Positions 45,815 through 63,904 of a stretch of 63,904 nucleotides of DNA are shown here, piece after piece. The stretch covers positions 1-63,904 of the forward strand of contig CAZVGK010000019.1 in the NCBI GenBank assembly GCA_964626665.1. The letters run 5' to 3'. The notes below the pieces were generated by a model. That model did not search any database. It was not told where the DNA came from and worked only from the letters and a program-made list of their open reading frames with translations. Every line of letters starts with the position of its first letter. Within the stretch, counting starts at the first letter, position 1. The position numbers and the translations under genes were made by a program. Origin of the DNA: an uncultured Gemmatimonadota bacterium (GTDB taxonomy: Bacteria; SM23-81; DAOVCL01).

Positions 45815-45835
45815 CCAAGGTCGAGGGACAATTTC

Positions 45836-45931
45836 GTAGGGACAGACATTTATGTCTGTCCGATTGCTTCCGAATTTCGCAGGGGGGGGCAGAATCCCTG
45901 TTCTGCCCCGGTCGGATCAGGGGATCTGACC
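45836..45931. repeat. GTAG-REP copy plus family E copy
   Basis: GTAGGGACAGACATTTATGTCTGTCC identical to 28036-28061; family E at 45885-45931. Confidence 0.8.
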
Positions 45932-45969
45932 TATGATCCGAGTGAGCCATTTAAGAGAGGAGGAAGGAG

Positions 45970-48036: not shown

Positions 48037-51000
48037 ATGAATAACGTTGAAAATCGGGTATATGAGTCGCTAACAAACCTCAAAAGCCCAGACAAGCTGA
48101 CAGAACTGTTCTGCTCTAACTTTCTCCTCAATTATGAATATAGTGGACATGTAGTGTCTCACCGTGGTTGGAAAGAGCGAATAACAGACTCGATCCATAA
48201 TTTTCAGCTTGTTGGCACACACGACGACTTTCATATCATCTTTTGTGAAGTAGATCGTCTTTTGCTTGGCACTGAGAGACCTATTATAAATCAATTGTTG
48301 AAAGAGCACCCCTATTGTCTTGTTGTCTTCTCCGATCCTTCCCACCTGAACTGGCACTTTGTGAATGTCAAGTATGATGAGGAAGTCAAAAACCGTCGCC
48401 TTTTCCGGCGAATAGTCATCGGTCCCGACGAGCGACTTCACACAGCGGCTCAAAGAATTAGCATGCTTGATGTGGCTGATGAGCGCATGACGGCGTTAGA
48501 CTTACAAGAACTCCATGATGAAGCTTTCGATGTAGAGAAGGTCACAAAGGATTTTCACAGCGCTTACAAAAACTTGTTCAACGAAGCCATTAAGAGAATC
48601 CGGGGGAGGGAGAGTTATGATAATGCCCACAAGTTTACCCACCTCCTCTTCAATCGACTGATGTTCCTCTACTTCATCCAGCGTAAAGGTTGGCTGAGAG
48701 CTATAGCAGGCGAAAGTCCTGACCAGGAGTTTATTCACAACCTATGGAAGTATTACAAAACAAAGGGGGAAAAGCGATCTCATAATTTCTATCGGGACTG
48801 GTTGAAGCCTCTGTTTTTCGATGCGATGAAGAATCCCAGGAAACATGGTTTCAAATACAGCCGACATTTAGCTCCAGAGTTGCTGAAAGTGTTTCTCGAT
48901 ATGCCCTACTTGAATGGTGGCCTTTTTCAGGAGGACGATGAGGTAGATTATATAGATTTTCAGGTCGAAGATGGCATCTTCAAGGAATTAATTGGGAAGG
49001 ACGGTTTACTACAGAGGTATAATTTTACTGTTCGTGAAGACCTTCCATTGGACATTGAGGTGGCTTTGGACCATGATATGCTGGGTGCGGTATATGAAAG
49101 CGTAGTGAATGAAGAGGAGCGAGGTGAGGGAGGGATGTTTTATACCCCCAGGACCGAAGTGGATTTTATGTGCCGTTCAAGCCTGATCCAGTATTTGGAT
49201 GGTTTTGGGATACTCCCTCAGGAAGAACTCATTCGATTTGTGATGAATGCTGATTATCCTGACGAAGTACCTGATGTAGATCCCAGCGAATTGCTCAAAA
49301 TACGGGACCGCATCCATGAAGTGAAGGTGGTTGACCCTGCTTGTGGGTCCGGTGCTTTTCTGGTGGGGATGCTGAAAGTCCTGTCTGGCGTACTTCGGAC
49401 TATACACGAGAAATCGGGTGAGCCGTTGGATATGTTTAACGAAAGACGGCGGATGATCGGGGAGAACCTTTACGGAGTGGACATCAAGTCGTGGGCAGTA
49501 AAAATAGCTGAGCTCCGTTTGTGGTTGACTCTTATAATTGAGGCTGATGAAGAAAAACTCGCTCTGAGGAATAAACCATTACTTCCCAATCTGGACTACA
49601 ATATCCTTCAGGGGGATTCCTTAGTTGAGGAGATTGTACCAGGAAAGAAGTTGGTGCTCCGCAGCCAGTATTCAGACCTTCATTTCTCGCCCCGCATCAA
49701 ACGACAGATCACCGAAATTCAGAAGCTGAAAAGTGCGTATTATGAAGGCAAGCCAGAGGTAACAAAGCTGGAGATCGAGTCGAAGAAGCAAAATTTTCTG
49801 CGTGGTTTTTTTATCGAGGAGCAGCAGCGTTTACAGAAGGAGATGATTCGTCTGCGTCGAGGACCTGAGCCGAAAGCTGAACAGAGCGTGATGGATTTTG
49901 CCCGCAGACTTGAACAAGCTCGATTGGAACTACGGGAGAGCGAGGAAGAACAGACACAGCGGGAAAAGAAAATTGCTGAACTGGAGAGACAGTTTCATGA
50001 CTATCAGCGTATGGCTGGGGAATTTTCGACGATGGGAACAAAGGGCTATTTTCTCTGGGACCTGGATTTTGCCGAGGTGTTCTACCAGCGGGGCGGGTTC
50101 GATGTGGTGATCGGCAATCCGCCTTATGTAAGGCAGGAGGGGATTGCGCCGCCTACCAAACACAAAGGAGATTACGATGCGGATACCTGGCGGGAGATGA
50201 AGCGGGAATACAAGGAGAAACTCATAGAGTCGGTGAGTCTGCACTGGAAGGGTTTGAAAAAAAATCGAAAGTGCGATCTCTACATCTATTTTTACCTACA
50301 CGGTCTGGCGCTTCTGAGGCCTGGGGGAACCTTTTGCTTCATTACCTCCAATTCCTGGTTGGATGTGGGCTATGGCGCGGTACTGCAGCAGTTTCTGTTG
50401 GAGAATATCGAGGTGAATGCCATTGTTGACAACCGGGCCAAGCGGTCGTTTGCTTCAGCGGATGTAAACACGGTGATCAGCCTGTTCCGGAGGCCGAAAA
50501 GCCGCAAGGATTGGCTGCAAACGAGGGAGAATCATTTAGCCAGGTTCGTGACCTTCAACAAGCCGTTTGAAGCCTGTCTGACTGCAGATAATTTGGCGAA
50601 GATCTTCGCGGCGCCGGAGGTGGTGAAGGAGGAGGACTTTCGGGTGTATCCCATCTCGCAGGGGGACCTGTTTCAGGAAGGGGCGGCGAAGGAGGAGAAG
50701 CCGCAGGCCAAGATGATCACCGGCAGGATGGAGGGGAAATACGCCGGTGGGAAGTGGGGTGGGAAGTATTTGCGGGCGCCTGATATTCTTTATACTATTC
50801 TGGAAAAGGGGAAGAGCAGGTTCTCACTCCTTGGACAAGTAGCAAATGTTCGACCGGGCTGCTATGCTGGTATAAATGATTTCTTCTACCTAACAGCATC
50901 TCAAGCTAGAGAGCTTGGAATTGAAGAACAATTTCTGTTTCCAATTATTCGGTCACCACGGGAGGTAACGAAACTTGCTCTTTCCTCTACCGATATAGAT

Positions 51001-51682
51001 TACGTGGTTTTCTATTGTCCTTTAACCAAACAAAACCTGCGAAAGCAAGGGTACATTGGTGCTTTAGAGTATATTAAATGGGGTGAAGGACAAGTCACCA
51101 GAAAGCGACAGAAGACTGCTGCTGGAGTACCTTGGCCTGAGACAGAAACAGTCAAGCGGAGATCACCTGGTTGGTGGGCAATTCCTAATCAAAGCGTAGA
51201 AACTACAAGAAACTTTCTGCTCTATGTAATTAGGAGACCGATTTATAGCACCCTGGTCAGACGCACCTGTAGTTTCAGACCGGTGCTTTCACAGAATTTT
51301 TCCAAAGAATAGGGAAACACTAGTTTTTGCAGCAGCTCTTAACTGCTCATTAACCTTCTTATTCATAGCTTTATTTGGTCGATCAAATCTTGGCATGGGA
51401 GCTGAAAAATATGAAACCACAGACGCTAAACGTTTGCTAATAATTGCCCCTGACATTCTGAAACAGGTATCCAACGATTTGTTTGTAGTTCTTGAAAAAC
51501 TTGGTAGAAGGCCTGTTCTCTCAGTGACAGATGAGATACGACAACCCGACCGCCGTGCCCTCGACCACATCATCTTCGACATCCTTGGCCTCACGCAGGG
51601 CGAACGGGATGCAGTGTATGAGGCGGTGGTGGATTTGGTGCAGGCGAGGCTGGAGAAGGCGAGGAGTGTGAAAGGGTCGTAA
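48037..51682 (+). pseudogene. Type IIG/Eco57I-like N6-adenine DNA methyltransferase with TRD, frameshifted at about 51231
   Basis: YLNGGLF, FYTPR, DPACGSGAF, GNPPY, DLY, SNSWLDVGYG. A +1 shift continues as GDRFIAP...GRSNLGMGAEK... into ORF 51395-51682. Confidence 0.88.
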
Positions 51683-51684
51683 CC

Positions 51685-53415
51685 ATGGCAAATCTAAGGA
51701 AGATTACTATTGACAAATTTCGTTCCATTGATCATGTGGAGTTGTTCTTTCCAGAGAAGACACCAGTTGTTATTGTTGGAGAAAACAATGCTGGGAAGTC
51801 CAACATCGTTGCCGCGATCGACATAGTTTTGGGAGAGCACTATCCTAAAACGCGCATACTGGAGGAAAGGGACTTTTATTTTCGTAATCCTGAACAAAGC
51901 ATTTCTATCATGGCTGATTTTTATGAACCGTTAGCTGGTAAATTCCAACAACTCCATTGGAAATATGACCCCACTGATGATAGAGATCCATTAAAGTTTG
52001 TTGGCATTGATGTGTATGGAGAGCAGAAATGGCCTAGAAACGAAGACAGGGATGATTGCATGTGTATTTTTGTTCAAGCAGAGAGAAGCCTAAACTATCA
52101 GCTCAGCTATCAGACGAAGTATACAATGCTTAGTAAGCTGATGCATGCTTTTCACAAGGAGCTACAGCGTAATCAACAAGTTCGGGATGATCTACAGGAG
52201 GAATTTGAGAAAGTAAAAGGACTATTTGACCAGGTTGATGCATTCAAAACATTTAAGGATACGCTACAAACTGATTTTAGTAGCTTAGTATCATGTATGA
52301 CCTACAAACTTGAGGTAGATTTAGAGGCATATAATCCCACCAACTTTTTCCACGCGTTGCGCGTGCAGGCAAAAGAGAAAGGTGAAGTTCGAGATTTTGA
52401 CGAATTAGGGACAGGGGAACAGCAAGTTCTGGCTATATCTTTCGCACATGCTTATGCCAGAGCGTTACACAAAACCGTGTTGTTAGCAATCGAGGAACCA
52501 GAGGCACATCTTCATCCACAGGCCCAACGGTGGTTAGCAAAAAGAATGTTTGACTTCGCACAAGACGGTCTTCAAATTGTAATCACGACGCATAGTCCAG
52601 CATTTATTAATCTGGCTCAATTGGATGGACTTGTTTTGACAACCAAGACAGATAGGGTGGGTACTACTACGCGCCAGTTAACCAGAGAAGAATTGACAGA
52701 GTACTGTGTTAGCCATAATGCTAACAGACAGAAAACTCAGGCGCAGAATATTTTTGAGTTTTATGCAGCCAATACAACCGAAGCAGTATTAGAAGGATTC
52801 TTCTCCAAATTGATTGTATTAGTAGAGGGACCAACAGAAGCTATGGCTCTCCCAGTTTACCTTAGAGGCTTAAGGTGGGATCCTGTTAGACAAGGAATTT
52901 CATTTATCCCTGTAGGCGGGAAAGGTAACATTCCCCGTTTTTGGCGTCTTTTTACCGCCTTTCGCATTCCAGTGTTTGTGATATTCGACAACGACTCTCA
53001 AGACGATCAGCAGAGTCTCAAAAGGCAAGATATTTGCGAAACTCTTGGCCTTCATGATCCGAATGAAATTCAAGGTGTCCTTGATGAACAAAGGATTACA
53101 GTAAAAAACGGGTTTGCTGTTTTTGGAGGCGACTTTGAGAAAGCCTTACGTCGTAATTTTATTAATGTGGAATATGAAAAACACGAACGCGAAACAAGGG
53201 AGTTTTTAGGTATTGATCCAGGCAACTTAAAAGAATGCAAACCGCTGGTAGCTCGTAGGGTGGCGGAGAAACTTATTGAAGAGGTAGATGAACGGAATGA
53301 GATGTGGAGCCCGTTGATTCAATTGCGCAATGCTTTGCAAGCAATGTTAAAACAAGCACAAGCAATTCATGAACTTTCAGTTGAGACAATAGAGGAAGAA
53401 GGTTCGCCATTTTGA
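51685..53415 (+). CDS. OLD-family ATP-dependent nuclease (ABC ATPase plus TOPRIM)
   Basis: GENNAGKS, LGTGEQQ, IEEPEAHLHP, TTHSP, LVEGPTE, DND. Confidence 0.9.
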   Translation: MANLRKITIDKFRSIDHVELFFPEKTPVVIVGENNAGKSNIVAAIDIVLGEHYPKTRILEERDFYFRNPEQSISIMADFYEPLAGKFQQLHWKYDPTDDRDPLKFVGIDVYGEQKWPRNEDRDDCMCIFVQAERSLNYQLSYQTKYTMLSKLMHAFHKELQRNQQVRDDLQEEFEKVKGLFDQVDAFKTFKDTLQTDFSSLVSCMTYKLEVDLEAYNPTNFFHALRVQAKEKGEVRDFDELGTGEQQVLAISFAHAYARALHKTVLLAIEEPEAHLHPQAQRWLAKRMFDFAQDGLQIVITTHSPAFINLAQLDGLVLTTKTDRVGTTTRQLTREELTEYCVSHNANRQKTQAQNIFEFYAANTTEAVLEGFFSKLIVLVEGPTEAMALPVYLRGLRWDPVRQGISFIPVGGKGNIPRFWRLFTAFRIPVFVIFDNDSQDDQQSLKRQDICETLGLHDPNEIQGVLDEQRITVKNGFAVFGGDFEKALRRNFINVEYEKHERETREFLGIDPGNLKECKPLVARRVAEKLIEEVDERNEMWSPLIQLRNALQAMLKQAQAIHELSVETIEEEGSPF

Positions 53416-53599
53416 GGTTAATTAACTTATAGGAAATCATATACGACTGATTATTTATACTGTAGAAGAATCGTTTTCGATACAACTGGTCTTATGCAGG
53501 GCTAACGTGATACTGTTTACGGGCAGTGGAGTTGGTGCGGGCGAGGCTGGAGAAGGCAAGGAGTGTTTGGAATATGGTAAGAAATGGCTCCCCTGAAAT

Positions 53600-53697
53600 A
53601 AAAAAACCCCGCCGAAACGGGGCGTTCCGCTCGGGCGGAACCACCTCCAAGCATGTTGGATTGTAACAAACATAATTCTTTGCATGGCAAAAGTCAA
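53600..53697 (-). ncRNA. Candidate ~60-nt small RNA with its own promoter and terminator
   Basis: TTGACT(53697-92)-17bp-TATGTT(53674-69), three consecutive hairpins, the last a GC stem followed by U7. Confidence 0.5.
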
Positions 53698-53860
53698 GTC
53701 TTTTTTGCGATGTTCGAAAATTAAAACAGGGGTGTTAGTAGAGTGGGTGCGGGCGAGGTTGAAGAAGGCGAGGAATGTGTGAAACTTGACTGCACGATTT
53801 CCTCCACACTTATAAAAAACTGTGAAGGCTTTTGGTCAATTCTCGTATAAAGGATCACAA

Positions 53861-54928
53861 ATGTCAAACAAGACCTCAAATAGATTACCTGCCAAACCAA
53901 AATCAGATTACTCGTATTTGATCGAAGCCATAGGCGGTTTAATCCAGTCGGCTCGGTCTCGGGTGGTTCAGACTATTAACACGGAGATGGTTCGACTTTA
54001 TTGGGAAATCGGCAGACATATTGTTGAGTATGAGCAAGGGGGGAGCGATCGAGCTCAATATGGTAAAAATCTCTTAAAGAAGCTTGGAAGAGATCTATCA
54101 AACCGTTTTGGAAAGGGATTTAGTTGGCGGAATCTTTTCAATATGCGTCAGTTATATCTTGCCTTTCCAAAATTGCAGGCAGTGCCTGCAAAATTTAATC
54201 AGGATGAAAATCTTCAGGTGCTGCCAGAGGAATTGTCCTGGACACATTTTCTGCTCATCATTCGTGTTGAAGAACCTCTTGCCAGACAGTTTTATATCAA
54301 ACAGTGCCAGTTGGAACGCTGGTCAACGAGGGAACTTGAGCGTCAGATAAATTCAATGCTTTTTGAGAGAATTGCTTTGTCAAAGGACAAAAAGGGAGTG
54401 CTTGAGATAGCGCGAAAAGGTCAGCAAGTATCAAAGCCAGAAGATTTACTGAAAGATCCTTATGTCTTTGAGTTCCTCAACTTGCCCGAGGGCTACAGAC
54501 TCTCTGAAACCGAACTGGAGCGGAGATTAATTGATCATCTCCAACACTTTCTCCTTGAATTGGGTAAAGGCTTCTGTTTCGTCGCCAGACAGAAGCGGGT
54601 TACCATAGGTACAGACCACTTTTACATTGACCTTGTGTTTTACCACCGTATTTTGAAATGTTTTGTTCTCATTGACCTTAAGATGGAGGCTTTCAAACCA
54701 GCCGATGCCGGGCAGATGAATTTCTATCTCAATTACATAAAGGAGAACGAAAGCCAACCGGAGGATAATCCACCCATTGGAATTCTCCTTTGCCTGGACC
54801 GTAACGAGTTATTTGTTAAGTATGCCACTGCTGGAATGGACAATCTCATTCTCACTGGCCGTTTTAAACTGACACTTCCATCAGCAGAATTACTCAAAGC
54901 AGAAGTGCAAAAGGTTTTGGAAGGATAA
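53861..54928 (+). CDS. YhcG/DUF1016 PDDEXK nuclease-domain protein
   Basis: YWEIGRHIVE.EQ.G..RA.YG, LSWTH, WSTRELERQI, KDPY.FEFL, LELGKGF, IDLVFYH, IDLK, GQMNFY. Confidence 0.92.
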   Translation: MSNKTSNRLPAKPKSDYSYLIEAIGGLIQSARSRVVQTINTEMVRLYWEIGRHIVEYEQGGSDRAQYGKNLLKKLGRDLSNRFGKGFSWRNLFNMRQLYLAFPKLQAVPAKFNQDENLQVLPEELSWTHFLLIIRVEEPLARQFYIKQCQLERWSTRELERQINSMLFERIALSKDKKGVLEIARKGQQVSKPEDLLKDPYVFEFLNLPEGYRLSETELERRLIDHLQHFLLELGKGFCFVARQKRVTIGTDHFYIDLVFYHRILKCFVLIDLKMEAFKPADAGQMNFYLNYIKENESQPEDNPPIGILLCLDRNELFVKYATAGMDNLILTGRFKLTLPSAELLKAEVQKVLEG

Positions 54929-54929
54929 A

Positions 54930-57900
54930 ATGACCTCTCACGATATTATTGACAACCGCAACGAGAAGCTTGTGGATCATATCAACAGGATCCTACAAGG
55001 GACTGAGAAAGCCAAGTTCGCCGTTGGCTACTTCTTTTTATCAGGATTTGAGGCGATTAAAGATAGACTAAAGGACCTTAAAGAGCTTCGCCTTCTCATT
55101 GGGAATACCACGAATCAAGCAACACTTGAACAACTTTCAGAGGGATTCAAGCGACTTGAACTGGTGGAACAAGCTGAAAAGGAAATGCGGTTTGTCAGAC
55201 GTGGTGAAGCCAGGCGCCTCAAAGAATAGACCGCGGATAACCTTAGACAGGTTATAGAATTGACGGATCAGACGGACGACCAAGAGGAGATAATCATTAC
55301 TCTTGCTCGTCTTATTGAAGAGAAGCGACTAAAGGTTAAGGTCTATACAAAGGGTCGTCTGCACGCCAAGGCTTACATATTCGACTATGGGAAAGTTTTT
55401 GGTAAAGATGGTAAGCCGATTGAAAGAGAAGAAAATGGAATAGCCATTGTAGGCTCAAGTAACCTTACCCTTTCAGGGGTGACGCACAATACAGAACTCA
55501 ATGTTCTTGTCCAGGGCAATGCCAATCATTCAGAACTCACCAAGTGGTTTGAGGAACTGTGGAACGAATCCCAGGATTTCGATGATGCCCTGATGAACGA
55601 ACTGAAGCAATCGTGGGCAATGGCTCCAGTTAGCCCTTACGATATCTATATAAAAACGCTATATCATCTCGTCAAAGATCGTCTGGAAGAGGCTGAAGGT
55701 AAAGAGGTTCTATGGGATGATGAGATTACCACCAAACTCGCCGATTTCCAGAAGGTAGCCGTCCGCCAGTCCATTCAGATGATAAAGGATTATGGTGGAG
55801 CTTTCATTGCCGATGTTGTCGGTGTGGGCAAAAGCTATATTGGAGCAGCAGTGCTCAAACACTTTGAGCGAACCCGTGGTGCAAGAGGATTGATTATCTG
55901 CCCTAAATCCCTGGAGAAGATGTGGGAAGGCTATAATGAGAAATACCAGCTCAATGCACGGGTGCTCTCCATGAGCATGCTCAAAGAGGCCGAGGAGGCT
56001 GGTCAAAATCTACTTCTGGAAGATGTCAGATTTCGTGACAGAGATTTCACTCTTGTGGATGAAAGTCACAACTTCCGTCACCATACTACTCAGAGATACA
56101 AGGTATTGCAGGCTTTCTTAGGCGCAGGTGCAAGGAGATCTTTATTCCTGACAGCAACTCCTCGCAACAAGACCGCCTGGGATATCTACCATCAGATAAA
56201 GCTCTTTCATCCAGATGATAAAACCGATCTCCCCATTGATCCACAAGATCTGAGGAGATATTTTCAGATGATTGACAGGAGAGAGCGTAAGCTTCAAGAT
56301 CTTCTCCCGAGCATTCTCATCAGGCGGACTCGGCATCACATCTTGAGATGGTATGGGTATGATAGCGAAACCCATCAGCCGGTAGATCCTTCACGGTATA
56401 GAGACTACCTTACAGGACAACGCCGGGCTTATATAATAGTCGGAGGTAGACATCAGTTCTTCCCGAAAAGGGAACTCGAGACCATTGAATACAGCATTGA
56501 GGCCACTTACCAGGGGCTCTATCAGCAGATCCTTAAGTTTCTTGGACGTCCTCGCGGGCAATCGAATGAAGCAAGCAATGATTTGGAGCTTACCTATGCT
56601 CGATATGGGCTATGGAACTATGTCCATAAAGATAAGCAAAAGAAGGCCCCATACACTGATTTGCATCGGGCAGGCAGGAATCTTCGGGGGTTAATCCGCA
56701 TAATGCTCTTTAAGCGCTTTGAATCAAGTGTACATGCGTTCCGGGAGACAATCAAGCGGCTGACCAGGATTCATAGGGGTTTTCTTGCATCGCTCGATCG
56801 AGGGATGGTGCCCGCTGGCGAGGATGCCCAGATATTGTTGTATGAATCCGATCAGATGGAAGAATCGGAGCTCTTCGATGCTCTCAATGAAGCCAGTGCC
56901 AAGTATGACATTAACGACTTCTATGTTGACAGACTAAAAGAAGACATTGAAAAAGACTTCGGTCTGTTCAATAAAATTCTCGGCTTGGTATCAGAAGATA
57001 GAATCCCTCCAGAAAAGGATGCCAAGCTCCAGACTCTATTCAGGGAGTTAGAGAAAGCCCCCCTAAATAATGGCAAAAGGCTTATATTTACCCAATATGC
57101 GGATACTGCTCAGTATCTCTTTGACAATCTGAATCCAAATGGGAAGGAAAAATACATAGAAGTTATCTACAGTGGAGATAAGAGTAAAGAACGTGTAATC
57201 GGACGTTTCGCACCAAAGGCCAACCCTGAGTACCGATTACGAAAGGGTGAGGTTGAAATACAGACCCTTGTGGCAACCGATGTTTTGGCTGAGGGGTTGA
57301 ACCTTCAGGATTGTGATAAGGTGATCAACTATGATCTTCACTGGAACCCGGTGCGCTTGATTCAAAGATTCGGTCGAATTGACAGGGTTGGAACAGAATA
57401 CGAGGTGATCTGGGGTTACAACTTCCTTCCAGAGGCAGAATTGGAGAAGACGCTTGGATTGAAGGAGAAACTCCGTAACCGTATTCAGGAAATCCATGAC
57501 ACTATCGGCGAGGATGCTGTAATACTTGATAACACTGAGCAACTTAACGAAGAGGCGATGTATGCCATATATGAGAAGCGTGGGGATCAACTTACCCTGT
57601 TTGAAGAAGAGGAAGATATCCTGGACATAAATGAGGCCGAGGAGATGCTTCGTCAACTGAGAAGTGAGAATCCAGGTGAGTTCGAACGAATTGCTAACCT
57701 GCGTGATGGAGTGCGAACTGGAAAAGCATCAGAACAAAAGGGCATATTTGTCTTCTGCCAGGCAGGAAGATACCAACAGTTAATTCTGTCAGACAAGGAT
57801 GGCAAGATCATCACCAGGGATATTCCCAAGATTCTTGGAATATTGAAGTGTATCGAAACAGAGAAAGGCCTCCCACTGCCTAAGGATCATAACAAGAAAG

Positions 57901-58271
57901 TGATGAAGATCAAGAAACTTTTTGACGAAGAGGTAAAGCATCGCGCAGCGGAGAGAGAACAGACGATCTCTCTCACGCAAGGTCAAAAGTATGTGCTCCG
58001 GGAATTGCGTCTTGTTTTTGGCAAAACGGAAGACGATGATTTGAAAGCACAACTCAACATATTGGAGAAGGCTTTCAGGCTTCCTGTAACTGTAGCAGTC
58101 AATCGGGGACTCAATTTGTTAAGACGCAATGGCATCGTGGGTGAACAGTTGACAAAGAATCTTACTCGAATATACCACCAACACAATCTGCAAGATCAAA
58201 TTGATCGCCGCAAGATTGGAATTAAAGAGCTCGTTATTCCCAAAATTATCTGCAGCGAAGCTTTGCTATGA
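54930..58271 (+). pseudogene. PLD nuclease-SNF2 helicase fusion with in-frame TAG at 55227-55229
   Basis: ORFs 54930-55229 and 55260-58271 are in the same frame, separated by one TAG. AVGYF, LHAKAYIFD/GSSNLT (HKD), ADVVGVGKS, DESH, TATP, EGLNLQD, QRFGRIDR. Confidence 0.85.
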
Positions 58272-58420: not shown

Positions 58421-58687
58421 GTGAAGGCCATGGGATGTGAAAATTATGCAAATCTTAAAGAGACTCATTTGACCAATTGGCCTACGGAACTTCAGGAGGA
58501 AGTAAAAGAATTTGCCGAGTTCTTGCTGGAGAAGAAAGTGAAAAAGCCAAAAGGCAAGCCCAAATTTGGCTGGGCTGGTGCGCTCAAGAACCTCCAAATC
58601 ATTCCGGAAGTAAAAGGCTTTGAGACGGAGCAAGATCGGCAGAAAGAGGGGGCGGATCCTGATGACCCGGCGGAGGTTGGCTCATGA
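58421..58687 (+). pseudogene. DUF2281-like antitoxin fragment
   Basis: PTELQEEVKEFAEFLLEK...PKFGWAGALK with degenerate ends. Confidence 0.5.
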
Positions 58688-60372
58688 AGTCAGAGGAGCT
58701 CGCGGCCATGTTGAAGGATCTCCCGGCCTTGCCTTCCGAGACAGAATGGGTAGAATTCAAAGAGGCCAAGAGAAATTTTGATTTCGATGACCTGGGCACG
58801 TATTTTTCAGCGCTGAGCAACGAGGCCAACCTTACAGGCCAGTCGGCTGGCTGGCTGGTCTTTGGAGTAAGCGACAAGCCGCCCCGTCGGATTGTCGGGA
58901 CTAACTACCGCCGTCAAGCTCCTGGTTTGGATAGGCTCAAACAGGAAATTACCAAGCATACAAACCATCATATCACCTTTCAGAATATCTATGAACTGCA
59001 ACTACTTGAGAGGCGGGTCGTCCTGTTTCAGGTACCACCTTCACCTCGAGGCATTCCTACAACCTGGAAAGGAATCGCTTACGGCCGCATTCACGATGCC
59101 CTTGGACCGTTGAGCCTCGAAAAGATCGAACGCATCCGTAGGCAGGCCACATATGAGGACTGGTCGGCACAGATATGCCACGGAGCCAAGCTGAACGATC
59201 TTGATGAAGAGGCCGTTGCTTTTGCCCGCGGGGAATACAGAAAGAAGTTCCCGGATCTTGCCGGCGAGGTTGAGAAGTGGGACGATATCACTTTTCTAAA
59301 CAAGGCCAAGATCTGCATTAGTGGACAGATCACCCGAACGGCGATTATCCTTCTTGGCCGAAGCGAAGCAGAGCATTTCCTTTCGCCTGCTATCGCCCGT
59401 ATCACCTGGGTGCTCAGAAATAGTGATGGAATGGAAAAGGATTATCAACATTTCGGACCACCTTTGATCCTTGCCGTGGATCAGGTCTTCGCCAAAATCA
59501 GGAATCTGACCTACCGTTATCTTCCCGACATGAGTCTGTTTCCCACCGAAATTTCCCAATATGATCCATGGGTGATCCGTGAGACATTGCACAATGCCAT
59601 CGCACATCAGGATTACACCTTGGGTGGGCGCGTCAACGTAGTTGAGGAGCCGGAGTCGTTACTGGTCACAAACGCAGGAGAATTTTTGCCAGGAAGTGTG
59701 GAAGCGGTGATCCAACGGAATGCACCACCAGAAATCTACCAGAACCGTTTTTTGGCTGAAGCAATGTTCAACCTGAATATGATCGATATCATAGGGAGCG
59801 GAATAAAGCGTATGTTTACGAAGCAAAGGGAGCGTAATTTCCCTATGCCTGATTATGACTTGGGTGAATCCGGCCGGGTTAAGGTTCGTATTATCGGAAG
59901 AGTGCTTGACGAGAATTATACACGGATGCTTATAGCCAAGGAGGATTTGACATTAATGGACGTAATCGCCCTTGACAAGGTCCAGAAGGGGAAATCCTTG
60001 TCCGAAGAAGAGTATAGAAGGCTAAAGGCGAAAAAGTTGATTGAAGGACGACGTCCGAGGCTTTATGTTTCGGCGAAGATCGCTGCCGCTACAGAAACAA
60101 AAGCTGATTATATCAAGAAGCGGGCATTTGAGAAGAAGCATTATAAGGATATGATCATAGCCTATCTTCAAGAGTTCGGTGATGCTAAAAGGACAGATAT
60201 CGATAAGTTATTGCTTAACAAACTTTCCGATGCCCTAAGCGATGCGCAGAAGAGGAACTTTATCAGGAACTTGCTTCAGGAGATGCGGCGGGAGAGAACG
60301 ATCGAGCCGCTTGGGTCCCGACGATGGGCGATATGGCATTTGTCTAAACAGTCTCCGGAATCAGAAGTTTAG
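58684..60372 (+). CDS. AlbA_2 (Schlafen-like) domain/HATPase_c_4/HTH protein
   Basis: ETEWVEFKEA, SALSN, LVFGV.D, RETLHNAIAHQDY, NAG, GSGI, C-terminal wHTH. Confidence 0.85.
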   Translation: MKSEELAAMLKDLPALPSETEWVEFKEAKRNFDFDDLGTYFSALSNEANLTGQSAGWLVFGVSDKPPRRIVGTNYRRQAPGLDRLKQEITKHTNHHITFQNIYELQLLERRVVLFQVPPSPRGIPTTWKGIAYGRIHDALGPLSLEKIERIRRQATYEDWSAQICHGAKLNDLDEEAVAFARGEYRKKFPDLAGEVEKWDDITFLNKAKICISGQITRTAIILLGRSEAEHFLSPAIARITWVLRNSDGMEKDYQHFGPPLILAVDQVFAKIRNLTYRYLPDMSLFPTEISQYDPWVIRETLHNAIAHQDYTLGGRVNVVEEPESLLVTNAGEFLPGSVEAVIQRNAPPEIYQNRFLAEAMFNLNMIDIIGSGIKRMFTKQRERNFPMPDYDLGESGRVKVRIIGRVLDENYTRMLIAKEDLTLMDVIALDKVQKGKSLSEEEYRRLKAKKLIEGRRPRLYVSAKIAAATETKADYIKKRAFEKKHYKDMIIAYLQEFGDAKRTDIDKLLLNKLSDALSDAQKRNFIRNLLQEMRRERTIEPLGSRRWAIWHLSKQSPESEV

Positions 60373-60557
60373 ACATAGCCTTATACATAGGCTATCAGTA
60401 CAACCTATTAAAAATGAATGTGTTCCGTTAATCTAAAGTGGGTTTCGTTCGGCGGTATTTAAGCGATTTTTAGACATAGAAACTGCAGGGACTCCGTATC
60501 TTTGAAGAGGTGTTAAGTGTCTTGGAAACTGTGGATAGGCAAGCAAAAGGTGGAGTT

Positions 60558-63458
60558 ATGAGACTTAGCTTGAGCAGTGAGCGGAGAACTGTTCAAAATC
60601 CCCTCCTTCGCTACGCTACGGAGATGGGTTGGGAGTATCTGCCCCCTGAGGAGGCCCTCCGGCTGCGAAGGGGTGAGGTCAGCCCCATCTTGTGGGATGT
60701 CTTCATGGGGAAGGTCCAGCAGCTCAACCCGGACACGGTAGATCATATCAAGGCCGAAGAGGTGGGCAAGAGGCTCATCCGCGTTCGGCCAAATGTTGAG
60801 GGGAACCTTGAGGCATGGGAATATCTTACAGGTCTGAAGACTGTCTTTGTAGAGACTGAGCGGCGGGAGCGCAACCTCCGGCTTCTGGATTTCCATAACC
60901 TCCATCGCAACGTTTTTCAAGTAACCGACGAATACTCCTTTACCAACGGGGTCTACACCATCCGTGCCGATGTGATCTTCCTCATCAATGGAGTCCCCAT
61001 CATACTGATAGAGACCAAAGCGGCTACCAAACTGGAGGGCATAGCCGAAGCTCTGGCCCAGGTGCGCCGTTACCACCGGGAGACACCGGAGTTGCTGGCG
61101 CTGATGCAGGTGTTTGGGCTAACCCACCTTGTGCAGTATTACTACGGGGTCACCTGGAATCTCTCCGCCAAGAACCTCTTTAACTGGAAGGAAGAGGCGA
61201 CAGGCCGTGATTTCGAAACCTTAGTGAAGACATTTGTAGCCCCTGAACGGGTGCTGCGCGCGCTCAGGGATTTCATCCTCTTTACTCACAAGGATGACGA
61301 ACTGCAGAAGGTCATCCTACGGCCACACCAAATGAGGGCAGTGGAACGTTCGCTTAAGCGTTGTGCGCACCCGGTGAAGCGTCGCGGCCTCATCTGGCAT
61401 ACCCAGGGCTCAGGTAAGACCTACACAATGATCACCATTGCCAAGCGGCTGATTGAAGAGCCTGGCTTTGAAAATCCAACGGTGCTTATGTTGGTGGACC
61501 GCAACGAGTTGGAAACCCAACTTTTCGGCAATTTGGCTTCAATGTTGAGTATCGGCCAGGTGGAGGTGGCCCGGAGCAAAGCCCATCTGCGAAGGTTGTT
61601 GAGGAGCGACCGCCGAGGGCTCATCATATCTATGGTCCACAAGTTTGATGATATGCCTGCTGACCTTAACCTACGGGAAAACATCTTTGTCCTGGTTGAC
61701 GAGGCCCACAGAAGCACGGGCGGCGAACTGGGTAATTACCTGATGGGCACCCTCCCCAACGCCACCTACTTGGGCTTTACAGGCACGCCCATTGACAAGA
61801 CCGCCTACGGCAAGGGGACTTTCAAGGTCTTCGGTGTGGATGACCCAGCTCCGGGGTATTTAGACAAATATTCCATTGCCGAGTCGATCGAAGACGGCAC
61901 TACCGTAGCGCTCTATTATTCGCTTGCCCCAAACGAGCTTAGGGTAGATCGGGATACCCTGGAGCGAGAATTTCTTGACTTAGTAGATGCCGAGGGGGTA
62001 AACGATATAGAAGACTTGAATCGAATACTGGATAGGGCCGTAACGCTGAAGAATATGCTCAAAAACCGCCAGCGGGTGCAGCGCATAGCCAAGTATGTGG
62101 CCCAGCACTTCACGCAAGCCGTTGAGCCAATGGGTTACAAGGCTTTTCTGGTTGGAGTAGACCGAGAGGCATGTTGTCTGCTGAAGCAAGCCTTAGATGA
62201 ATATCTGCCACCTGAATATTCGCGAGTGGTGATCAGCGCCAGTCATAACGATCCACCAGAGATAGCTCAGTTCCGCCTCTCGAAGAGAGGAGAGAAGCGC
62301 ATCCGAAAGGCATTCCGCAAGCCAAATGAGCTCCCGAAGATGCTCATCGTCACCGAGAAGTTGCTCACTGGGTATGACGCTCCCATTCTCTACTGTATGT
62401 ATTTGGATAAGCCTATGCGCGACCATGTGCTTTTGCAGGCCATTGCCAGGGTCAACCGGCCTTACGAAGACGAGAACGGCAAACACAAACCCGGTGGCTT
62501 TGTATTGGACTTTGTGGGCATCTTCGAGAAGCTCGAAAAGGCATTGGCCTTCGACTCAAAGGATGTCCAGAGTGTCATAGAGGGGGTGGATAAACTTTGG
62601 GCGCGCTTCATCCAGATGATGAGCCAAGGGAGAGATCAATACCTTATTGTGATACGGGAGAAGAAAGCGGACAAGGCGGCAGAGGCTGCGCTTGATGAAT
62701 TCCGCGACGAGGAGAAGCGACAGGCCTTTTATCGTTTCTTTAAAGAACTTGAGGACCTCTACGAGATCCTCTCCCCTAATCCGGCGTTGCGAGATTTCTT
62801 GGAGGACTATAATAGGTTAGCTGGTCTTTATGCGCTGCTCCGCTCGGCCTATGAGGGTGGGAAACCGACCGACCAAGAACTGGCCAAGAAGACCGCTTAC
62901 CTGGTGCAGAAGTACACAAAGGGGAAGAAAATACTGGATGCTGTTACAATCTATGAGATCACCCCCAAGACCTTGGAGCAGATCTCGCAGAGCAATCAGC
63001 CGAAAACGATCAAAGTGTTCAACCTTCTAAAGAGCATTGCCAAGAAAGTTAAGGAGGACGCAGGTGGTGCACCGTACCTGTTTTCCATTGGTGAACGAGC
63101 AGAAGCTATCGTGGAAGCTTTCAAACAGCGCCAGATCTCTACTCAAGAGGCTTTGAGTAAATTGGAGGAGCTGATTCGCCAAATCAACGAGGCCGAACAA
63201 GAACAAGCAGAGCGAGGGATATCCGGGGGACCCTTCGCCATTTTCTGGTTACTTAAGCAAGGGGGAGTGTCTGTGCGTGAGGCAGAATCCGTGGCGGCAG
63301 ATATGGCAAGGATTTTGGATAACTATCCCCATTGGCGCACCAGCGCTTAGCAGGAGAGAAGGGTTCGCCGTGAGCTTTACAGCCATCTGCAGGGGCTTGG
63401 TCTTCAAAATATCCCGGAGGTAGTCAAAAACATCTTGGCAATAGTGGGGAGAAAGTGA
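60558..63458 (+). CDS. hsdR: Type I restriction enzyme R subunit, in-frame TAG at 63348-63350
   Basis: D...NG.P...ETK, WHTQGSGKT, DEAH, FTGTP, LTGYDAP, QAIARVNR. The frame stays open 35 codons past the TAG to a TGA overlapping the next GTG. Confidence 0.9.
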
Positions 63459-63796
63459 AAGAGATCCAAAGTGCCATTCGCCGGCCTCTGGAGGAAAGCG
63501 TGCCGCTGGGTGTGTTGAAAGCGGAAATTGAGGGGTGGGCCCAGCGGATAGGTGTGAAACCGCGGGAGATTCGGGTCCAACCGATGAGACGCAAGTGGGC
63601 CAGTTGTTCAGGCCGCGGCCGCCTGACTTTTAATACGGGACTGTTAAAGCAGCCGGCCCGTTTTCGGGCGAGAGTGATCGTGCACGAACTGCTCCATCTC
63701 AAAGTGCCCAATCACGGAAAGCTATTCAAGGCCTTATTTGGGGCGTTGCTTCCCCAAGAGGATCAAGGAAAGCCTATTCAAGCCCGGAGGGATTGA
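63455..63796 (+). CDS. M48/YgjP-like zinc metalloprotease domain protein
   Basis: MRRKWASCS, VIVHELLHL..PNHG..F; usual partner downstream of hsdR. Confidence 0.85.
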   Translation: MKEIQSAIRRPLEESVPLGVLKAEIEGWAQRIGVKPREIRVQPMRRKWASCSGRGRLTFNTGLLKQPARFRARVIVHELLHLKVPNHGKLFKALFGALLPQEDQGKPIQARRD

Positions 63797-63904
63797 GGGG
63801 TCAGGTCTTGCTTTTTGCTCTTTAGATGGCAGAGTAGAACAACCTTTCTAGCGGATCTTCCAGAGGCGATTTCACCGTAACTCTCTGATGATTAAGAGGA
63901 AAAC

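Follow-up and report, generated by a model that had tools for sequence, protein, structure and literature searches.

Orphan copies of a methyltransferase gene end in a Gemmatimonadota defence island and their possible origin by displacement of neighbouring cargo

The island and its three copies of a methyltransferase 3′ end

The subject of this study is the 3′ end of a DNA methyltransferase (MTase) gene, hereafter the tail, which occurs three times within a defence island of an uncultured Gemmatimonadota bacterium (GTDB SM23-81; DAOVCL01). The stretch analyzed, referred to as the window, comprises the 63,904 nucleotides (nt) of contig CAZVGK010000019.1 from assembly GCA_964626665.1, a metagenome assembly of 3.17 Mb in 63 contigs (genome G000) in which the island is located at a contig end. 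The island extends from ~47.6 to 63.8 kb and displays a GC content of ~42% compared to ~55% upstream. Comparisons were made with the two other species of the genus, G001 and the sister species G002, and with four metagenome contigs designated L073 to L076.

The body of the MTase gene occupies positions 48037..51231 of the forward strand. Its product harbors the Pfam domains Eco57I (4.7e-32; 111.9 bits against a cutoff of 25.3), MmeI_Mtase and N6_Mtase, matches the PADLOC model REase_MTase_IIG (4.4e-63) and contains the NPPY motif in the form GNPPYVRQE; on these grounds it is assigned to the Eco57I-type (type IIG-like) N6-adenine MTases. A sequence search of the PDB with the whole protein yielded only distant matches to CamA-like and BrxX/PglX MTases, and one with the 149-residue C-terminal part yielded no match. 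The protein is collinear with an intact homologue of 1259 residues (L012; 43% identity), the frame changing exactly between NFLLYVI and GDRF. As assembled, the reading frame is not intact: it carries a single +1 frameshift at ~51231, possibly a sequencing error, because of which the body is read in frame 1 and the tail in frame 2. The C-terminal segment at 50737..51532 (forward strand), presumed to be the target-recognition region, is AT-rich, with a GC content at third codon positions (GC3) of 0.30-0.37 compared to 0.64-0.78 directly upstream and 0.74 in the tail. The tail value (37/50) differs from those of the preceding 300 nt (30/100; p 3e-7) and of the first 300 nt of the next gene (39/100; p 6e-5), housekeeping genes standing at 0.65-0.68.

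A first-pass annotation of this DNA had claimed that the MTase 3′ end recurs as direct repeats bracketing cargo genes, and its coordinates and identities were reproduced. The copies lie on the forward strand at 51628-51675, 53525-53572 and 53737-53784, copy 1 sharing 38/41 positions of a 41-mer with copy 2 and 34/41 with copy 3. A degenerate pattern of 33 nt found exactly three matches in the window (mean of 0.00 in 100 shuffles) and those same three sites only across the 3.17-Mb genome. Copy 1 (51533..51682, forward strand) is the true MTase 3′ end, read in frame 2 and ending in PDRRALDHIIFDILGLTQGERDAVYEAVVDLVQARLEKARSVKGS followed by the stop codon; the tail profile matches it at 51533-51670 (E 1.7e-27). 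Copy 2 (53468..53572, forward strand) is a non-coding relic of ~105 nt with an in-frame TAA and a 4-nt deletion, detected by nhmmer at 53468-53568 (E 1.9e-10) and by tblastn as the pieces IVFDTTGLMQG*RDTVY and VELVRARLEKARSV; the more degenerate homology described for a further ~55 nt upstream of its 41-mer was found as well, starting at ~53468 with ~68% identity. Copy 3 (53730..53784, forward strand), a relic of ~50 nt of the tail that formerly preceded the yhcG-like gene described below, was detected solely by the degenerate pattern and blastn-short. Searched genome-wide at E<=1, the tail DNA profile returned four copies, namely copies 1 and 2 and two on contig C24, which carries the second locus of the genome. 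Since all five copies sit at the two loci of this MTase type, the tail is not a genome-wide repeat, and the possibility of a dispersed 41-mer unrelated to the MTase is ruled out. The best reading of copies 2 and 3 is that they are scars, not working parts. None of the copies folds better than shuffled sequence (z -0.14 to +1.01 in five folds including reverse strands, 200 shuffles). A template/variable repeat pair of a diversity-generating retroelement was also considered and rejected: no reverse-transcriptase domain was detected in the open reading frames (ORFs) scanned, and the differences between the 41-mers of copies 1 and 2 are T>G, A>G and G>A.

Given that the window belongs to a metagenome assembly of 63 contigs and the island abuts a contig end, the repeats might have been created by the chimeric joining of contigs at repeated sequence. 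The three copies differ mutually, however, and so cannot be collapsed repeats. The identical arrangement recurs in contigs from Logan (X1, 21 kb) and JGI (L075, L076; 64 kb), possibly of the same source, and short contigs from runs X21 and X22 bridge copy 1 to the following gene, and the small-RNA-like unit to copy 3 and the yhcG-like gene, with 0 differences. An assembly artefact is therefore scarcely credible.

Between copies 1 and 2 lies, as annotated, the whole of an OLD-family ATPase-TOPRIM nuclease gene, the first cargo gene (51685..53415, forward strand), which begins 3 nt past the MTase stop codon and whose product matches Pfam AAA_15 (9e-35) and OLD-like_TOPRIM (1.5e-20) and PADLOC Old (7.8e-54). 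The Gabija system consists of GajA, which is OLD-like, and the UvrD-like GajB; this assignment was rejected because the best PADLOC match was Old, ahead of GajA, and because copy 2, and no helicase gene, comes next. The promoter-hairpin-terminator unit reported between copies 2 and 3 proved real in its elements, both of which are on the minus strand: the small-RNA-like unit at 53598..53700 presents a promoter-like TTGACT-17-TATGTT and a terminator-like hairpin with a T run. All Rfam matches to it were on the minus strand and under the gathering score (isrB, 23.9 bits against 35). A homologue of 163 nt and 79% identity is found in the sister species, beside a DUF2283 gene (G002:C97; L005 ~1500-1660), and the unit has thus been kept in two species in differing contexts; it is probably the remnant leader of a lost cassette.

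Copy 3 is followed, again as annotated, by a gene for a YhcG/DUF1016 PD-(D/E)XK nuclease (53862..54928, forward strand; Pfam YhcG_C 9.2e-58 and DUF1016_N; PADLOC PDC-S02), whose likely start, from comparison with L074, is the ATG at 53862. YhcG, which may be either cargo or a core gene, comes after a tail in the window, in G002 and in L074. Next comes the partner of the MTase, a PLD(HKD)-SNF2 helicase-nuclease (54930..58271, forward strand; Pfam PLDc_2, SNF2-rel_dom and Helicase_C) split, as assembled, by an in-frame TAG at 55227-55229, such that positions 3-70 of the PADLOC HKD+Snf2 model fall in ORF 54930-55229 and positions 90-840 in ORF 55260-58271. A single lesion is present in all three large restriction-modification (RM)-type genes of this kind in G000: the frameshift of the window MTase, the TAG of the PLD-SNF2 gene, and, in the C24 MTase, a TGG>TAG change (L009 ~7397) in a conserved SNSWLDV motif. 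The frameshift, the TAG and the second locus on C24 had escaped the first-pass annotation. DUF2851, missing from the window, recurs beside the MTase/PLD-SNF2 pair in G002, G105, G320 and L019 and is a candidate for a third core component of the system.

The island is completed by Pfam-identified AlbA_2/Schlafen-like (58684-60372) and type I HsdR (60510-63350) genes, both on the forward strand. In line with the absence of a nearby integrase noted in the first pass, no integrase or transposase domain is encoded by any of the 14 ORFs that were scanned in the interval 43.0-63.4 kb. In the sister species, the orthologous site (G002:C54) has DUF433, N6_N4 MTase and MNT/HepT genes in place of the island between ~47600 and 63790; this site (L072 994-1189) retains 72 nt that match part of the final 100 nt of the window (63792-63861), together with 59 nt from the PLD-SNF2 5′ end, and both appear to be scars left by the loss of a similar island. 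Outside the island, between the Ppx and TPR genes, positions 45832-45932 contain repeats of ~30-45 nt that recur in dozens of copies at 85-100% identity on many G001 and G002 contigs and represent a dispersed, genus-wide repeat.

Orphan tails and the genes behind them in other genomes

A 46-position profile of the tail was searched in 401 genomes, mostly one per family. Matches were obtained in 29 genomes; 43 were listed, of which 34 had E<=1e-5. Fourteen of these 34 strong matches lie inside open frames of at least 580 residues, and five in MTases broken by one lesion near the 3′ end, namely those of the window (frameshift), of G105, G320 and G279 (an in-frame stop each) and of G304 (IS21 insertion). 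Eleven, each of them examined, are orphans with no MTase body attached, and the remaining four were left unclassed, three being at contig ends and one not having been examined. When a 45-position internal motif of the MTase was searched in the same genomes as a control, 95 matches with E<=1e-5 were obtained, none of which (0/95) was in a frame shorter than 389 residues. By this comparison, orphan relics are general and specific to the tail. Orphan tails retain the 3′ end of the profile (positions 42-46), their 5′ starts falling anywhere from position 4 to 32.

The stops among the broken MTases call for a remark of their own. Three unrelated genomes each have one in-frame stop within the last 250 codons of the MTase, at nt 6589 of L055 (G320), nt 7279 of L057 (G279) and nt 8199 of L054 (G105). 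The G320 (TAA) and G279 (TAG) stops share the same alignment position, directly before G(I/E)E..FLKP, which could be due to chance, a mutational hotspot or a regulated split.

Multiple tail copies, two to four per locus, were found at six loci of five of the 29 tail-bearing genomes (the window, G000:C24, G001:C200, G002:C109 with four copies, G102:C177 and G251:C24) and at a seventh locus, L016, in a Dictyoglomus metagenome-assembled genome. In each of the seven, all copies are on one strand. The stacking of units of tail plus cargo proposed earlier is thus supported, with all units in a single orientation. The expectation that homologous loci in other organisms would carry extra tails was borne out in several phyla, but most of the intact MTases searched had no second tail in the stretch of DNA covered. 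A search for related loci with the window MTase protein recovered 11 loci of 31-43% identity, of which one, L016, had a second tail; a gene-order search based on G251 reached seven genomes and added one match, and the exact-pattern scan of genome contigs returned no match.

The genes behind the tail differ by locus. At least 18 families were seen directly after a tail or relic, including nucleases and helicases (OLD, an OLD fragment, YhcG, Mrr_N, a UvrD-like helicase), toxin-antitoxin types (PIN, ParE, MazEF, DUF3368/UPF0175, DUF4258, MNT/HepT, SocA/Panacea) and others (AlbA_2, DUF3800, SIR2_2, DUF3024, HTH-peptidase M78, a GNAT fusion, an MBL-like protein); genes with no Pfam family include those for products of 305 (G105), 337 (G251) and 135 residues (C24). 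As the following gene varies among loci, the slot right behind the MTase is hypervariable for cargo. An orphan tail followed by AlbA_2 in G002 corresponds to an intact tail followed by AlbA_2 in G320. Fragments of other genes were also encountered in the islands, in the form of the 5′ ends of PLD-SNF2 and DUF2851, an N-terminal OLD ORF of 79 residues (L019) and the start of AlbA_2 (L016).

Three further observations concern the surroundings of individual tails. In G280:C61, far from any MTase, an orphan tail, a DUF4258 toxin gene and an 81-residue ORF lie between two ABC-2 transporter genes (L063 5458-6254), the tail starting where the upstream transporter gene has its stop codon. In all three species of the genus, the frame of the C24-type MTase runs 158 residues past the tail motif before an orphan tail is reached (L009 8750-9226; L051 7850-8323; L052 10789-11262); no Pfam family matches this extension, which may once have been a separate downstream gene that became fused to the MTase. 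Directly before the C24-type MTase, G000, G002 and the unrelated G304 carry a small gene with the Pfam domain UPF0758_N (RadC-like N-terminal), and a 118-residue ORF that was not Pfam-scanned occupies this position in G001 (coordinates at this position: L009 5404-5757; L051 4513-4899; L052 7458-7811; L056 1110-1439).

At 11 loci (the window, L012, L014, L019, L022, L023, L024, L026, L033, L034 and L035), the next gene begins 0-10 nt past the tail stop codon. We considered whether relics might be kept for a function in cis toward the downstream gene, as a ribosome-binding site, leader or regulatory RNA. The tail ends in AAG GCN AGG AGT GTN, and in G397 and G357 this places AGGAG 9 nt before the next ATG. 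In the window and G002, however, the spacing amounts to at least ~18 nt, several tails (L016, G320, C24 type) have no AGGAG, a ribosome-binding site requires ~15 nt and not 50-130, and copy 2 precedes no ORF. The related idea that the tail end generally provides the Shine-Dalgarno sequence of the next gene was dropped, as it holds for G357 and G397 only. A cis function of the relics is very unlikely.

Breakpoints at the tail and the proposed displacement of cargo

The exact-pattern scan of metagenome contigs identified two relatives beyond the window's own contig, L074 and L073. L074 contains an entire tail, which matches copy 1 at 90.5% identity over 126 nt and is joined directly to the YhcG leader, and its YhcG region is 90.2% identical to the window over 1367 nt; OLD, copy 2 and the small-RNA-like unit are missing. 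The 3′ end of copy 3 and the 80-nt YhcG leader of the window are arranged just as in L074, where the complete tail stands. Upstream of its tail, L074 has no DNA homology to the window. L073 contains an orphan tail, 91.3% identical over 103 nt, before a UvrD-like helicase gene, and both its flanks are unrelated to the window. The AT-rich MTase segment is without DNA homology in either contig, blastn homology to the window beginning only at 51545 (L074) and 51568 (L073). Because L074 has the tail joined to YhcG without the insert, the window carries, relative to L074, an insert of ~2.1 kb with the final 42-55 nt of the tail on either side. At two diagnostic sites, copy 3 shares its bases with L074 (G, T) and copy 1 with L073 (A, C), which suggests that the incoming DNA carried its own tail. 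Since the copies match different tail alleles, displacement by tail-bearing incoming DNA is favored over the insertion of a cassette at the resident tail.

An insert flanked by direct repeats that restores the end of the interrupted gene is also what might be left by small integrative elements targeting the MTase 3′ end and bringing a replacement end, the repeats being att sites and the recombinase having been lost or acting in trans; islands insert at tRNA genes and restore the gene end in this manner. Repeat lengths and 5′ ends nonetheless vary by locus, and the copies are merely 79-93% alike. The scanned ORFs of the window's island encode neither integrase nor transposase, and the mobile elements encountered elsewhere (the IS21 within the G304 MTase, an IS200-like Y1_Tnp upstream of the G279 MTase and, in L016, a TnpB-like ORF, read from its translation, after the AlbA_2 fragment) flank no tail array. 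We regard this origin of the repeats as highly unlikely.

Other data, too, point to endpoints within the tail. The order of elements in G002:C109 is MTase, a DUF3368/UPF0175 pair, orphan tail, YhcG, DUF2851, PLD-SNF2, the same DUF3368/UPF0175 pair again, orphan tail, AlbA_2, a DUF2851 5′ relic and a partial tail. The toxin-antitoxin pair has been duplicated over 811 nt with 0 mismatches; identity ends 12 nt inside the tail, after which 24 mismatches accumulate up to the tail end (9377) and homology then ceases. Such a pattern is expected when a crossover occurs in the tail and the far end is joined illegitimately. A block of ~280 nt, ~94% identical (counted from the alignment), is common to G357 and G397, which belong to different families, and is composed of the last ~125 nt of the MTase and an orphan tail with the same 5′ end; it is flanked by unrelated upstream segments and by different cargo (Mrr_N or MNT), and the relics have different in-frame TAGs. 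Finally, a contig of run X21 (~180 nt, depth 7) joins position 51656 to 53765 in register, so that the copy-3/YhcG leader is immediately preceded by an entire tail belonging to another allele; contigs identical to the window occur in the same run. The raised GC3 of the window's tail relative to both its flanks is a further indication of breakpoints there. A second joint, from 51670 to 57289, was set aside as it derives from another organism's 20-kb contig.

We find it reasonably probable that the relics were left as scars by sequential displacement in a slot with variable cargo, for which the tail serves as the homology patch. In RM-like systems pairing an Eco57I-type MTase with PLD-SNF2, the ~130 nt of the MTase 3′ end would form a conserved patch between two variable regions, namely the upstream C-terminal, presumed target-recognition segment and the downstream slot for defence and toxin-antitoxin genes. 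As the tail is the sole conserved DNA between them, homologous crossovers would fall within it. Incoming DNA made up of part of an MTase, its own tail and new cargo would recombine through homology in or upstream of the tail, and the joining of its far end, either illegitimate or through a second tail, would take place inside the resident tail. This would bring the new unit to lie beside the MTase, and the old one, reduced to the 3′ remnant of the tail and its cargo, would be displaced downstream and erode from its 5′ side. RecA-type homologous recombination or homology-facilitated illegitimate recombination would be the mechanism. Applied to the window, the proposed order of events would start from an ancestral MTase-tail-YhcG arrangement, intact in L074, followed by the arrival of a cassette surviving only as copy 2 and the small-RNA-like leader, and then by that of the present AT-rich segment and OLD. 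Of the earlier suggestion that the tail acts as a recombination anchor, the recurrent joint has thus held up, the tails of L073, L074 and the window being 90-91% identical with differing neighbors and the G002 endpoint falling inside the tail; dedicated capture has not.

Several points weigh against this explanation. More than one tail copy was found in only six loci, in five of the 29 tail-bearing genomes, and no second tail was found beside the intact MTases examined within the 1.5 kb covered. The internal-motif control takes in a broader range of MTases (94 genomes) than does the tail (29 genomes), which limits it but leaves it some force. The assignment of copies 1 and 3 to different tail lineages is based on two sites; the clean endpoint in G002 is one event, with a left junction devoid of homology; the X21 joining contig measures only ~180 nt and comes from a single run. 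The runs, like contigs L073 to L076, are metagenomic, and L075, L076 and X1 probably derive from the window's own source. Cleanly mapped endpoints are few altogether, and recombination at the tail is deduced from sequence, no event having been seen directly. Part of the pattern, moreover, is general wear of the islands, since fragments of other genes persist as relics too.

The last point leads to passive decay, whereby several MTases, or a single one that had been replaced, would be lost by random deletion and the 3′ ends would survive where they abut, with hardly any spacer, a selected downstream gene, the tail having no role in recombination. Relics with stops, indels and truncation on the 5′ side, the close spacing of downstream genes at the 11 loci listed above and the persistence of other gene fragments are all in keeping with it. 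It leaves unexplained, however, the tract of 100% identity ending inside the tail in G002, the conserved block between unrelated flanks in G357 and G397, the homology of L074 and L073 beginning at the tail, and the GC3 island formed by the tail; copy 2, in addition, adjoins no ORF. We consider passive decay unlikely as the whole explanation, while allowing it a greater chance than any of the other alternatives.

The first-pass annotation had further likened the array to an integron. In its strongest form, this would be a dedicated, integrase-free platform, with the tail selected as a docking site and circles of tail plus cargo repeatedly excised and captured. Tail-cargo-tail arrays in several phyla, the duplicated module of toxin-antitoxin pair and tail in G002, the tail and toxin-antitoxin unit between transporter genes in G280 and the orphan tail with a UvrD-like helicase gene in a foreign context in L073 could all be taken in its favor. 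The likeness to an integron, however, is not supported: relics decay, their 5′ ends vary between profile positions 4 and 32, so that there is no fixed core site, and the tails form no hairpins beyond those of shuffled sequence. The island ORFs scanned contain no recombinase domain, and most loci have a single tail. Such a platform appears improbable, and only marginally less so is a looser version in which the tail is a selected docking sequence and units of tail plus cargo move between RM-like loci, and even into unrelated operons, by host recombination alone; in the latter, breaks made by the PLD-SNF2, OLD and YhcG nucleases might stimulate exchange, and, if it were true, an integrase-free network of cassette exchange would extend across phyla.

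If sequential displacement at the tail is the correct explanation, defence and toxin-antitoxin genes turn over in a slot that spans phyla and is marked to the nucleotide by the stop codon of this MTase family, and orphan tails are datable scars of past swaps. They would constitute a natural record of the order of acquisition in defence islands, and whatever comes after a tail or relic would offer a cheap handle on new defence genes. Homology-anchored displacement would also be seen to build gene arrays outside polymorphic toxins. No new recombination machinery is revealed by these data, and a dedicated integron-like system is not supported.

Comparison with known systems

Our literature search, judged from titles and the openings of abstracts, found no account of MTase-tail relics or of a cargo slot in PLD-SNF2/IIG-MTase systems, and the array is best compared with four known types of arrangement. 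An integron comprises the tyrosine recombinase IntI, an attI site and attC cassettes, the attC site being an imperfect inverted repeat that folds as single-stranded DNA. Like an integron, the window has promoterless or short cargo units stacked in one orientation, a recurring sequence bounding each of them; unlike one, it has no IntI in the 14 ORFs scanned, and its repeats are unfolded, decaying and without a fixed boundary.

The effector-immunity arrays of the type VI secretion system of Vibrio cholerae come closer. Displacement by homology-facilitated illegitimate recombination is proposed for them, and strings of orphan modules in Rhs and contact-dependent inhibition systems are cited (PMC5361080). 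There, and on our reading here too, a conserved part of a gene anchors the homology, the old module is shifted downstream and co-oriented strings of orphans result (PMC5361080). A conserved part of the main gene recurs before displaced units in the window, G002:C109, G001, G000:C24, G102, G251 and L016; the displaced copy 3 and YhcG resemble the intact tail and YhcG of L074 at 90% DNA identity; and recombination endpoints fall in the conserved part, albeit in few independent events. The arrays differ in that the anchor is here the 3′ tail of the MTase of an RM-like system, the displaced units are defence and toxin-antitoxin genes and not immunity genes, and each unit is marked by a short non-coding piece of the MTase end, with no cognate pairing of relic and cargo implied. 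A variable toxin tip with its cognate immunity gene is missing. The window array would thus work like a displacement array without being a member of the polymorphic toxins, as its main gene encodes an MTase and its cargo consists of unrelated defence and toxin-antitoxin genes.

[quoted passage not shown] Common to both cases are an insertion without mobile-element genes and flanking direct repeats of >30 bp, with a single tail at the empty site represented by L074. In the insertions of Furuta et al. (PMC2853133), the insert is an RM system and the target duplications are near-identical, whereas here the cargo lies within an RM operon, the insert, composed of OLD, a tail relic and the small-RNA-like unit, contains no R or M homologues, and the repeats are 79-93% alike, the two diagnostic sites suggesting different tail alleles.

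Lastly, the locus resembles the hotspots of defence islands, such as those of RM and BREX systems, in that conserved genes of the system flank a variable slot and the orthologous site of the sister species holds a different island. Unlike in the hotspot concept, the slot is defined here to the nucleotide, by the stop codon of the MTase gene, and leaves behind recognizable tail scars.

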